From the NCBI GenBank assembly GCA_045533875.1, contig JAZSIQ010000107.1:14673-78672 (forward strand): a DNA stretch of 64,000 nucleotides. The letters are read 5' to 3'. A program made the translations under genes and the position numbers. The DNA comes from Acutalibacteraceae bacterium (GTDB lineage: Bacteria > Bacillota > Clostridia > Oscillospirales > Acutalibacteraceae). The notes beneath the pieces were generated by a model. It was not told where the DNA came from, did not search any database, and saw nothing but the letters and a program-made list of their open reading frames with translations. Shown one piece after another: positions 20,329 through 55,277 of this stretch (positions are counted from its first letter, which is position 1; each line of letters starts with the position of its first letter).

Positions 20329-20560
20329 TAAAAAACTCCATCCCATACAAAACAGGATGAAGCAAAAGCCCCACGGTTCCACCCGTAATTGCGGAAAAAT
20401 CCGCCTCTCAAGAAGCCTGTAACGGGGCTTGCCGGTCTGCCTTATCGTTGCCGCTTCGGCAGACACTCCGCAGTGGTTGCCGCACGGAACTTTTACTGCC
20501 TTCACAGCTTACGGCAGCTCTCTGAAAAAGCCACCCGTCCGGCTCTCTGCATCAATGATT
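20329..20560 (-). promoter_or_regulatory. T-box riboswitch (Thr) leader
   Basis: T-box AATTACGGGTGGAACCGTGG (20390-20371); terminator cttcatcct/gggatggag+TTTTT; stem I with CAGAGAG and GCTGTGAA; ACC specifier candidate at 20477-20475. Confidence 0.9.
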
Positions 20561-20575
20561 TAAAATATTGGTATA

Positions 20576-40244: not shown

Positions 40245-40311
40245 GCCCCCGTAGCTTAAAGCAGAGCGTTGTTCAATCACAAAGGTGACGGTGCGATTCC
40301 GTCCTAGGGCA
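40245..40311 (+). ncRNA. tRNA-like element (degenerate tRNA or tRNA mimic)
   Basis: Acceptor GCCCCCG/CTAGGGC (5/7 paired), D arm GCTT/GAGC, T arm GACGG-TGCGATT-CCGTC, anticodon arm only 4 bp plus 6-nt loop. Confidence 0.65.
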
Positions 40312-53283: not shown

Positions 53284-53360
53284 CCGCCCGTGGCGCAGTT
53301 GGATAACGCAGCAGATTCCGATTCTGAAGAACGGGGGTTCGAATCCCTTCGGGCGGGCCA
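53284..53360 (+). tRNA. tRNA-Arg(CCG)
   Basis: Acceptor CCGCCCG/CGGGCGG, anticodon loop TT-CCG-AT, GGTTCGAATCC, encoded CCA. Confidence 0.97.
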
Positions 53361-53390
53361 GACAAAAGCAGCCTTCAAGCTGCTTTTGTC
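53361..53390 (+). terminator. Perfect 12-bp hairpin after tRNA
   Basis: gacaaaagcagc/gctgcttttgtc. Confidence 0.75.
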
Positions 53391-53393
53391 AAC

Positions 53394-53562
53394 TAAATCC
53401 ACCCTGTCGGGTGGGTGAAATATTGCTCTGCAATGTGAAATTCTCGATTTGCTCGAGTGAAATCGCTGCGGCGGTGAGTGGATTTAATTTCACTTAATGC
53501 GTCAGCATTAAATTTCACAATCCATCAGGATTATTTCATGTTTTCGTAAGAAAACATTTCAC
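53394..53562. repeat. Structured GTGAAAT/ATTTCAC hairpin-ladder element
   Basis: 3 (+1 degenerate) GTGAAAT and 4 ATTTCA(C/T) heptamers, separated by individual hairpins. Confidence 0.85.
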
Positions 53563-53607
53563 TTAAAGCAAATCCTCAATAAATCCGTTATTAACAATCG
53601 TACCAAG

Positions 53608-53740
53608 CAAAAAGCCTTGAAATTCTTGATAAATAAGGATTTCAGGGCTTTTTGATTTTTTCGGTTTTGTTTTAATTTTTTTGCTGTTTTTGCTTGTTTT
53701 GGTAATTATTTTTAAATATGCAAGTCAAATTCAAGTCAAA
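53608..53740. mobile_element. Possible integrative-element end remnant
   Basis: 47-nt imperfect inverted repeat (53608-53654) and CAAGTCAAA-TT-CAAGTCAAA direct repeat (53721-53740) close to a tRNA 3' end; no integrase seen. Confidence 0.4.
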
Positions 53741-53755
53741 AGTGATTTTGTTTTT

Positions 53756-54898
53756 TTAGGATTTTTCACTTTGCCAGACGATGTTGCCGTTTATTATAGT
53801 AGCTTTGACCGAGGAGTTTATTTCGAGCGGATTACCCTCATATATAACAATATCCGCATCTTTACCCTCTTTAAGACTTCCCAGTCTGCCATCAACTCTG
53901 CATATACGGGCGGCATCAATAGTGATTGCACGAAGCGCCGCTGTTTCACCCAAACCTTCTTTTGCTGCAAGTGCTGCGCACAGCGGCAAATACTGGATGC
54001 GTGAAACAGGGTGGTCGGTGGTTATTGCTACCGTCACACCTGAATCGTGTAAAATTCCTGCTGTTTTGAAGTCGCACAAACCGACTTCTTTTTTGTTCCT
54101 TGAAGCAAGTGACGGACCTACAATTGCGGGAAAACCGCTTTCTGCAATCTCCTGAGCTATAAGATGTCCCTCCGTGCAGTGGTCTATTGTCAAATCAAGG
54201 TTGAATTCTTTTGCGATTCTTATGGCTGTGAAAATATCGTCTGCTCTGTGTGCGTGTGCTTTAAGAGGTATTTTTTTTTCAAACAATTCTCTGTAACACT
54301 CAAAATAAAAATCCTTTGCATCCGATGAGTCTTGTGATAAATATTGCTGTGCTTTAAAAAGCTCTTCCCTTATAAGAGAGGCTGTACCCATTCGTGTTGC
54401 GGGAGTGTTGCCGTTAATTCCGTAGCAGTTTATCGGATTTTCACCCAAGGCTATTTTGATGGCCGATGGGGCAAGCACTATCATATCATCTATACGCCGT
54501 CCGTACGTTTTTATGAAAGCAAATTGTCCGCCGATGGCATTTGAACTGCCCGGTCCTGCCATAACGCCGGTAATGCCGGCTGCAAGCGCATTGTGGAATG
54601 CGCTGTCCATGGGATTTATACAGTCGATGCCTCTTACGGTAGGCGTTGTGGGGAAAGTGTTTTCATTGCTGGTATCATTTTGGGTTGTTGTTTTTTCTTC
54701 GGCAATACCGAGGTGGCTGTGAGCATCTATAAACCCGGGATAAACATTAAGATTCTGTGCATCAAAAATTTCTGTATCCTCATCAGGAATAATGTTTTTA
54801 CTGATTTTTTTGATTTTACCTTTTTTTATAAGCAGGTCGGCATGTGTCGGTGTGTTGTCTTCCATTGTGTGCAATAGTCCGTTTTTAATCAGAAGCAT
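53756..54898 (-). CDS. Amidohydrolase (imidazolonepropionase-like/YtcJ-related family)
   Basis: MLLIKNG, PGFIDAHSHLG, HAHRADDI, DHCTEGH, TTDHP, GKDADIV; start after AAAGGA RBS. Confidence 0.9.
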   Translation of the reverse strand: MLLIKNGLLHTMEDNTPTHADLLIKKGKIKKISKNIIPDEDTEIFDAQNLNVYPGFIDAHSHLGIAEEKTTTQNDTSNENTFPTTPTVRGIDCINPMDSAFHNALAAGITGVMAGPGSSNAIGGQFAFIKTYGRRIDDMIVLAPSAIKIALGENPINCYGINGNTPATRMGTASLIREELFKAQQYLSQDSSDAKDFYFECYRELFEKKIPLKAHAHRADDIFTAIRIAKEFNLDLTIDHCTEGHLIAQEIAESGFPAIVGPSLASRNKKEVGLCDFKTAGILHDSGVTVAITTDHPVSRIQYLPLCAALAAKEGLGETAALRAITIDAARICRVDGRLGSLKEGKDADIVIYEGNPLEINSSVKATIINGNIVWQSEKS

Positions 54899-54985
54899 GT
54901 TTGTTTCCTTTCTGTTTTTGCTGTTGTGAATAGTTTGCCGCATTTGAGATAAACTATCCTTGAAAATGATTAAGGAGGTGAAATC

Positions 54986-55150
54986 ATGAATAACCAGAAT
55001 AACAATCAGAACCAGAGAAACAACCAGAACAACAAACAGAACAACAATCAGAACAACCAGAATCAGAGAAATAATCAGAACAATCAGAACCAGAAAAACA
55101 ATCAGAACAACCAGAACCAGAAAAACAACCAGAACAACCAGAGAGACTGA
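54986..55150 (+). CDS. 54-aa Asn/Gln-rich micro-protein
   Basis: AAGGAGGTG RBS 5 nt before ATG; MNNQNNNQNQRNNQNNKQNNNQNNQNQRNNQNNQNQKNNQNNQNQKNNQNNQRD; synonymous AAT/AAC variation keeps the frame. Confidence 0.75.
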   Translation: MNNQNNNQNQRNNQNNKQNNNQNNQNQRNNQNNQNQKNNQNNQNQKNNQNNQRD

Positions 55151-55277
55151 TTTTCGGATGCTTTCGGAACACGGATTAACAGTTTGTTTTTTATAAAGCA
55201 AGCCTGATGAAAGCGGTGCATGAAATTTAAATCTGATTTTGTGTGCTTGATCAATATGCACAGATATCCGAAAAAGA

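Follow-up and report, generated by a model that had tools for sequence, protein, structure and literature searches.

A full-length, two-armed form of the Gut-1 motif behind a tRNA-Arg gene and its association with PF05635 genes

Introduction

The 64,000-nucleotide stretch of Acutalibacteraceae DNA analysed here (the window) contains, directly behind a tRNA-Arg gene, a ladder in which the heptamer GTGAAAT alternates with small hairpins of unrelated sequence and is followed by its complement, ATTTCAC, alternating with further hairpins. The locus raises the question of what kind of element is built in this way and what such a construction may serve. A first-pass annotation, made from the letters of the window, had proposed that selection acts on the structure of the spacers, that the left and right heptamers might pair with each other in a folded strand, that the run could be a non-autonomous mobile element, and that it belonged to no RNA family that could be assigned. 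When the coordinates of this annotation (53394-53562) were rechecked in the sequence, all of them were exact to the base. The positions of the words, the enclosing pair TAAATCCAC/GTGGATTTA and all six listed spacer hairpins were confirmed, while the hairpin at 53399-53414 (hp1) and the terminator hairpin at 53361-53390 (hp0) had been missed.

Results

Layout of the element and its assignment to Gut-1

Both halves of the ladder were matched by the Rfam family RF01706 (Gut-1) above its gathering score of 50, and both matches were full length, covering model positions 1-77 (Table 1). The first-pass annotation had itself held that a strong Rfam match would remove the claim of a new family, and this claim is therefore withdrawn. 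The window element is a member of Rfam Gut-1, in a full-length form that has so far been undescribed, and the Rfam model spans half of the real two-armed unit. Gut-1 was classed as a probable non-coding RNA on the basis of covariation and, according to the source paper and its supplement, was known solely from human-gut metagenomes (Weinberg et al., 2010, Genome Biol 11:R31, PMC2864571). Its Rfam entry, which dates from 2010, describes it in one sentence and names no function, and a full-text literature search found no later functional work on it. The likeness of the window arms to the described motif includes the three hairpins separated by GUGAAAU as well as the habitat, the metagenome of gut Clostridia. 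In comparison with the Rfam motif, the window unit adds a second arm, a fourth hairpin, a long-range helix (P0), a terminator hairpin and a tail; moreover, the motif is found here in a fixed position behind tRNA genes and with a linked PF05635 gene.

Table 1. Features of the Gut-1 locus in the window. Single numbers give the first position of a word.
Feature	Position	Strand	Basis or remark
tRNA-Arg (CCG), encoded CCA	53284-53360	+	ARAGORN; Rfam tRNA 54.1 bits
hp0 hairpin, GACAAAAGCAGC-cttcaa-GCTGCTTTTGTC	53361-53390	.	sequence, fold
Left arm, Gut-1 sense	53390-53486	+	RF01706 53390-53468, 70.7 bits; each hairpin covaries
Left arm, opening word h0 (CTAAAT)		+	
hp1, CCACCC tgtc GGGTGG	53399-53414	+	
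Left word GTGAAAT	53415	+	
hp2	53422-53434	+	
Left word GTGAAAT	53435	+	
hp3	53443-53457	+	
Left word GTGAAAT	53457	+	
hp4	53464-53473	+	
Truncated word GTGAG, followed by P0 3' strand	53474	+	
P0 long-range helix, 5' strand TAAATCCAC	53394-53402	+	covariation and alignment-free check
P0 long-range helix, 3' strand GTGGATTTA	53478-53486	+	direct repeat of hp1 3' arm
Right arm, inverted Gut-1	53487-53562	-	RF01706 53482-53564, minus strand, 51.5 bits; covariation
Right word ATTTCAC	53487	+ (as read)	
Right hairpin	53494-53511	+ (as read)	
Right word ATTTCAC	53512	+ (as read)	
Right hairpin	53520-53532	+ (as read)	
Right word ATTTCAT	53533	+ (as read)	
Right hairpin	53538-53557	+ (as read)	
Right word ATTTCAC	53556	+ (as read)	
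Tail, 43 nt, TTAAAGCAAATCC...CAATCGTACCA, CCA at end	53563-53605	+	
Flanking bidirectional terminator	53608-53654	.	terminator scan
Amidohydrolase gene, convergent, sharing the terminator 53608-53654	53756-55261	-	Pfam

The first base of the element is the base directly after the CCA of the tRNA-Arg gene. The hairpin hp0 is flanked by an A-tract on its 5' side and a T-tract on its 3' side and therefore constitutes a weak bidirectional intrinsic terminator; a counterpart of it was found ahead of 65/74 elements. It is followed by CAACTAAAT and then by the four mini-hairpins hp1-hp4 of the left arm. The tail that closes the element is conserved in another copy in the same genome (C45), as well as in the orthologous element of one congener. 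The terminator beyond the tail is probably the original terminator of the locus rather than a part of the element, and the genes around the window copy encode a PfkB kinase, an amidohydrolase and a GH28 protein. A scan of the window revealed no promoter for the element on either strand. The idea that the arrays are in general insulated from transcription was rejected, since terminators on both sides are present in the window copy but such flanking is not general among the elements.

Two other RNA features were recorded in the window. A T-box leader (RF00230, 95.2 bits, gathering score 93) at 20350-20564 on the minus strand is unrelated to the element. At 40245-40311 on the plus strand an Rfam tRNA match of 39 bits, to which no ARAGORN call corresponds, possibly represents a divergent or degraded tRNA.

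Conservation of the structure

The pattern GTGAAAT-N10-20-GTGAAAT occurs three times in the 64-kb window, each time within the element, against 0.01 occurrences expected from shuffles. The minimum free energy of a 210-nt stretch was -79.4 kcal/mol, compared with -45.1 ± 3.8 kcal/mol for shuffled sequences (z = -9.1). A covariance model that spans all 177 nt of the unit, built from the window element and its 97% identical orthologue, retrieved 74 full-length copies from about 110 loci, and 93 elements at E < 1e-9. Among these 93 homologous elements 95.7% of the cells were paired, compared with 61% in shuffles, double-sided changes were found in 43/46 pairs, and the covariation score reached 0.70, while shuffled partners gave 0.17 and slid partners no more than 0.074. 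The proposal that the spacers are selected as hairpins and not as sequence is borne out by these values. The hairpins hp1, hp2 and hp3 of the left arm, which are the three of the Rfam model, were paired in 91-97% of cells, and 16/18 of their pairs had changed on both sides; the hairpins of the right arm covaried likewise. The orthologue of the window element itself differs by one compensatory change from G-C to A-T and by loop changes that preserve the loop type. The two-armed layout, P0 and all hairpins are shown to be maintained by compensatory change, and the full-length Gut-1 structure is under selection.

The helix that encloses the left part of the ladder, which had been noticed in the first reading of the sequence, is real and covarying. 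The nine pairs of P0 were 99.1% paired in the 93 elements, and eight of them showed compensatory change. In an alignment-free check the median duplex measured 11 bp, and a duplex of at least 8 bp was present in 66/74 elements, compared with 6% in the swap control; these duplexes are of many different sequences among the 74 elements. Covariation was also observed for hp1 (91-96% paired). Since the 5' strand of P0 overlaps the 5' arm of hp1, the two helices are mutually exclusive; the sequence of the 3' arm of hp1 is directly repeated in the 3' strand of P0, and both of them track the 5' arm of hp1. A three-part arrangement analogous to that of hp1 and P0 was observed for hp0 in some variants.

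On the annotated sense strand of an arm the word gives each stem an A-U and a U.G closing pair, and the loops are UNC triloops on this strand and GNA/GNRA on the opposite one. The interior stem pairs of the left arms were of the Watson-Crick type in 518/522 cases. However, terminator stems scored in the same way contained wobble-type pairs at a level of only about 1.6%, and the scarcity of wobble pairs in the arms therefore carries no conclusion. The assignment of the strand through wobble pairs was dropped, as this test does not discriminate.

The words

The words are alike throughout one element and vary between lineages, the types being TGAAAT, TGATAT and TGAAGT, with TGAAT and ATGATG in more distant cassettes. 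The right word was the reverse complement of the left word in 63/74 elements as aligned and in 67/74 once four misaligned rows had been corrected, so that the complementarity noted in the window extends to about nine elements in ten. Six true chimeras, in which a left GTGAAAT is combined with a right ATATCAC or ACTTCAC, have a complementarity of 6/7, and four of them are located in one genome. When the word-word rungs were scored as base pairs, 72-95% of the cells were paired, with 72% for the outer rung, and at the variable word position compensated cells were about as frequent as broken ones in the 93-element alignment. The spacing of the words in the window ranges from 17 to 25 bp; since it varies, the words are not phased on the double helix, which favours a folded single strand.

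Distribution and genomic position

The genome from which the window was taken contains five Gut-1 loci, and each of them consists of a plus-strand copy and a minus-strand copy 10-45 nt later. The same convergent pairing recurs among the Gut-1 matches in the whole family. Within the family, where each genus was represented by one genome, 48/151 genomes contained Gut-1, and the number of arm matches in a genome reached 21 or more. At the level of the order it was found in 68/151 genomes and in 22/30 families sampled; the related loci carry labels such as Acutalibacteraceae, Oscillospiraceae and Clostridia MAGs, in agreement with the Oscillospirales to which the first-pass annotation had pointed. 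The triplet CCA stands immediately ahead of hp0 in about 45/68 elements (counted by eye), with a recognisable tRNA 3' end in about 31 of these and a degenerate one in about 14, and at one locus (L017) three elements are stacked behind a single tRNA-Gln. No other RNA family, such as tmRNA, was found upstream of those tRNA-less copies of the same genome that were checked (C45 and C142). Gut-1 is shown to be a multi-copy family placed right behind tRNA genes or terminators.

Carriage by phages or plasmids was considered and set aside, and no DNA match to the element was found in phage records. Two contigs from human faeces labelled 'UNVERIFIED: Bacteriophage sp.' (L226, MT835590.1, and L227, MT835815.1) carry the element together with a PF05635 gene. 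A tRNA-Arg gene lies directly upstream of the element in L227, and none was found in L226. These contigs may be bacterial DNA rather than phage.

The linked PF05635 gene

A PF05635 gene follows three of the five Gut-1 copies in the same genome. It is intact at C135 (positions 516-881, 121 aa, PF05635 match 1.4e-24), has an internal deletion at C142 and is broken at C95; the window copy carries no such gene. A glycine riboswitch (64.6 bits) is located at positions 1109-1201 of C135, downstream of the intact cassette. Among the same 151 genomes, 35 contained both Gut-1 and PF05635, 13 Gut-1 only, 19 PF05635 only and 84 neither, which corresponds to an odds ratio of 11.9, ignoring relatedness, compared with 0.89 for the control family Y1_Tnp. 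In a protein-first survey, 80 loci were chosen in GTDB genomes by PF05635 homology alone and the element model was run on them. Among the 76 evaluable loci, a full element was present upstream on the same strand in 52, with a median distance of 34 nt between the end of the element and the protein match. Where the PF05635 protein was at least 60% identical, the element was found at 34/37 loci. The loci without a model match mostly contained arrays of other words, one-armed arrays or hairpin-less runs of complementary words. The Gut-1 element is shown to be an almost constant upstream neighbour of PF05635 genes. When Gut-1-centred loci are considered, the gene follows only 16/73 elements, and gene-less arrays are shown to outnumber gene-linked ones by about four to one. 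The results of both surveys fit the first-pass suggestion of a non-autonomous element, as a copy that lacks part of a larger one. From the list of neighbours that had been recommended for tabulation, tRNAs and four-helix-bundle proteins emerged as linked features, whereas HUH/Y1 transposases did not (the odds ratio of 0.89 above) and no integrase was found near the window copy.

The type of the word tracked the protein clade in 8/8 gene-linked elements compared; as array and gene are physically linked, this match may reflect co-inheritance. A promoter of the sigma-70-like kind, frequently TTGAAA-17-TATAAT, separates the last word from the ribosome-binding site in about two thirds of the gene-linked copies, and the arrays of these copies are situated upstream of the promoter of the gene and outside its mRNA. 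The ribosome-binding site abuts the last word in roughly ten gene-linked copies. The linked protein is predicted with confidence to be a four-helix bundle (pLDDT 92). It matches PDB 2RLD (5 chains) with an E value of 7e-44, as well as 2GSC (5 chains), and gives TM scores of 0.75-0.86 against Avd of the DGR ribonucleoprotein. The large PF05635 family was still called 'functionally uncharacterized' in a paper of 2024, and the literature also refers to it as Avd-like. One genome (G120, 99% complete) contains 11 arm matches in near-identical copies, and neither a PF05635 nor a Y1_Tnp match was found in it. The arrays can thus be kept, and perhaps also spread, in the absence of the protein.

Signs of copying

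Two copies of the same genome, C142 and C95, share 93% identity over a stretch that begins with the T-tract of hp0 and takes in both arms, the promoter and half of the gene. Their hp0 stems are unrelated, as is the DNA further upstream, and their tRNA contexts differ. In G120 several near-identical copies lie behind unrelated genes. The orthologous tRNA-Arg site is filled in the congener G165, with 92% identity over the match from tRNA to tail. The same site is empty in G157, where the CCA directly joins the sequence that trails the tail of the element in G165. A CCAGACA repeat is present at both junctions of this site, which fits insertion or deletion equally. At the tRNA-Val site of C95, the congener G181 (L133, G181:C68, about 1115-1500) has instead a decayed one-armed array of the TGAAGT type, together with a consensus promoter and an open reading frame for a 52-aa small membrane protein.

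Several candidates for a mobilising mechanism were considered and rejected. An integrase-type att duplication was not retained, because a second tRNA 3' end was significant in only 2/39 elements when 1.3 kb downstream was searched; one cassette is flanked by degenerate 3' ends of tRNA-Ser. A HUH/Y1 transposase was set aside on account of the odds ratio obtained for Y1_Tnp, the transposase family tested, and neither an integrase nor a transposase was present among the neighbour genes of the window copy. A DGR-like retro-mechanism was discarded because RVT_1 was absent from the genome searched, that of the window (90% complete). Fragments of IS200/IS605-type Y1 transposases, one of them with an internal TGA, were observed in the same genome at C88:9139-9405 and C132:1197-1598, away from the Gut-1 copies. 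At another locus (L042, G160:C64) an insert of 100 nt lies between two copies of the last approximately 50 nt of tRNA-Arg with its trailer, an arrangement that resembles the att-site scar of some other element.

Discussion

In the explanation favoured here, which has a probability of about one half, the arrays serve the PF05635 protein as its partner in cis within a small cassette that spreads by copy and paste, and the window contains a copy of it without the gene. The locus is one complete gene-less copy of a two-armed Gut-1 element of about 180-250 nt, whose parts follow in the order of terminator hairpin, left GTGAAAT array with four mini-hairpins, closing P0, right array of complementary words and tail. 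Array, promoter and PF05635 gene together may form a small self-propagating cassette, and the adjacency and co-occurrence of the two suggest that the folded arrays would act as a nucleic-acid platform for a PF05635 multimer. In each arm four to five identical words would be held out between hairpins; displayed in this manner, their spacing in space would be independent of stem length. Gene-less copies would be non-autonomous derivatives and, if served at all, may be served in trans by the intact gene at C135. Several observations count against this explanation: 13/48 Gut-1-positive genomes had no PF05635 match, G120 retains its arrays without the protein, the only known mode of action of Avd involves a reverse transcriptase, which was not found in the genome of the window, the arrays of about two thirds of the gene-linked copies are outside the mRNA, and repeats of the tRNA 3' end flank few elements. 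A more specific version can be proposed only tentatively and has to be regarded as rather doubtful. In it Gut-1 arrays and PF05635 would form an undescribed cassette, in which an RT-free Avd-like pentamer would read a heptamer presented in four to five copies that alternate with mini-hairpins, hp1 and P0 would act as a switch, and the whole would copy itself behind tRNA genes.

The role of the words is the point at which another explanation has to be considered, namely a scaffold in which left and right words pair within one strand and form 7-bp rungs between stacked four-way junctions, with hp4 at the apex. This is possible, although the odds are well short of even. It could also be the folded form that the partnership with PF05635 requires, and it does not exclude the cassette. 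The reverse complementarity of the words holds across the TGAAAT and TGATAT types, the pairs TGAAT/ATTCA and ATGATG/CATCAT obey the same rule, four words per side fit three hairpins per side and an apical hp4, and the minimum-energy fold includes some word-word pairings. Moreover, a collapsed element retains the symmetry, and the word arms are complementary even in hairpin-less variants. The pairing of heptamers suggested in the first-pass annotation agrees with these observations as far as complementarity in most elements is concerned, but the chimeras persist despite their imperfect match, compensated and broken cells are balanced at the variable position, and the outer rung is paired in only 72% of cells. 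Furthermore, P0, the best-supported helix, crosses the word-word pairings and is topologically incompatible with them. Complementarity is also expected where a single factor recognises the same word on either strand, or where the right arm originated by inverted copying. The discoverers of Gut-1 read it as a free-standing non-coding RNA (PMC2864571), so that each arm could be a small RNA gene, the two forming a convergent pair, and would be the sponge or the scaffold of some RNA-binding factor that has no relation to PF05635. The very strong covariation, the conservation of gene-less copies, the arrays that G120 retains without PF05635 and the U.G and A-U closing pairs added to every stem by the word on the sense strand all speak for it. 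This reading nevertheless appears unlikely, as the left arm begins 0-3 nt past a terminator, so close that a promoter would not fit, the scan of the window revealed none on either strand, and the arms always form a convergent pair, which would be needless for independent small RNA genes. The nearly wobble-free interior stems point in the same direction, although terminator stems are similar, and so do the loops, which are UNC on the sense strand and GNA/GNRA on the opposite one.

The genomic position of the element could suggest a classical mobile DNA site, either a MITE served by a transposase or a set of integrase arm-type sites at a tRNA attachment site. The element is indeed multi-copy, with many copies at contig ends, and dispersed near-identical copies, as in a MITE, are seen in G120 and in C142 and C95. 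Its location at a tRNA CCA is typical for integrative elements, and the presence/absence polymorphism with a 7-bp direct repeat, the cassette between degenerate tRNA-Ser 3' ends and the outward-facing -35 box at the ends of elements could be understood in the same way. However, Y1/HUH transposases are unassociated with the element, no integrase or transposase adjoins the window copy, and flanking repeats of the kind expected from a tRNA-targeting integrative element were significant in few cases. Compared with the ends of a MITE, the CCAGACA repeat was seen at one site and the left boundary in C142 and C95 falls after hp0. In addition, the unphased words and the fact that the spacers are kept as palindromes, not as sequence, would be left unexplained by binding to double-stranded DNA, which makes this interpretation improbable. 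A passive insulator, in which a terminator, stable hairpins and an outward promoter would separate a strongly transcribed tRNA from the gene behind it and act without any specific partner, seems least probable, with very little chance of being correct. It is in line with the terminator-like hp0 of most copies, with the consensus-like TTGAAA-17-TATAAT directly after the last word in many gene-linked copies, and with the presence of genes other than PF05635 behind the element. On the other hand, a strong outward promoter was present in only 13/71 elements and a downstream terminator in 12/71. An insulator would also leave the invariant words, the joint change of words in both arms, P0 and the near-constant PF05635 link unexplained.

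The proposed partnership of the arrays with PF05635 can be compared with several known systems. The linked protein has the same fold as the PF05635/23S IVS protein family and the Avd protein of DGRs (2RLD, 2GSC, 4DWL, 8UB7). In 23S rRNA intervening sequences a PF05635 gene likewise lies within a small insert in a stable-RNA gene with complementary arms, but Gut-1 is situated after a tRNA CCA and not inside 23S rRNA, its two arms are both upstream of the gene, and they are complementary in their words only. In DGRs an Avd pentamer contacts structured RNA; in contrast to an Avd-containing DGR, no reverse transcriptase (RVT_1) was found in the 90% complete genome of the window. Pneumococcal BOX, Neisseria Correia and enterobacterial REP/BIME elements are short, non-coding, multi-copy and modular intergenic repeats that fold strongly. 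They have variable numbers of sub-units and a sequence conserved between copies, Correia elements also have outward promoters, and REPs are associated with RAYT (Y1) transposases. In comparison with them, Gut-1 keeps only a 7-nt word and the pairing, and has no Y1 association. In type III toxin-antitoxin systems (ToxI/ToxN) a repeat array lies just upstream of a small protein gene and its repeats are bound by a multimer. The Gut-1 array has a similar position relative to its small protein gene, but the protein is a helix bundle and not an endoribonuclease, a promoter and not a terminator lies between array and gene, and the repeats are inverted and not tandem.

For the window itself the result is modest, i.e., a known motif that was correctly spotted and that carries no gene. 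The tie between Gut-1 and PF05635 makes both of them testable with one purified protein and a nucleic acid of 180 nt. The ratio of gene-linked to gene-less copies resembles that of autonomous to non-autonomous mobile elements, and the link with PF05635 bears on the origin of the DGR accessory protein.

Some PF05635 loci have other upstream arrangements. At L041 (G157:C67, about 2510-2700) a tRNA-Arg gene is followed by a different structured leader ahead of the PF05635 gene and by no Gut-1; two inverted repeats, ACAGCGCC...GGCGCTGT and AAGAAGAAAGAATAGAGAATAA...TTATTCTTTATTCAATATTCTTTCTTCTT, are interleaved in this leader. At L194, L212 and L219 (about 1300-1500, upstream of PF05635) a hairpin-less variant comes after the tRNA CCA and a terminator. 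It begins with words of the CTTCACT type in a row, which are followed by an incomplete repeat of the terminator arm and then by complementary AGTGAA words, and the word runs could form a duplex of about 25 bp. PF05635 homologues with 54-57% identity occur in MAGs labelled as Verrucomicrobiales, Akkermansia and Victivallaceae (L193, L198, L185 and L205), which reflects either horizontal transfer or a binning error. No array was recognised upstream of the homologue at L185, while L193 and L198 have an identical upstream array of three hairpins, right-arm-like and with a word of the GATATC type.
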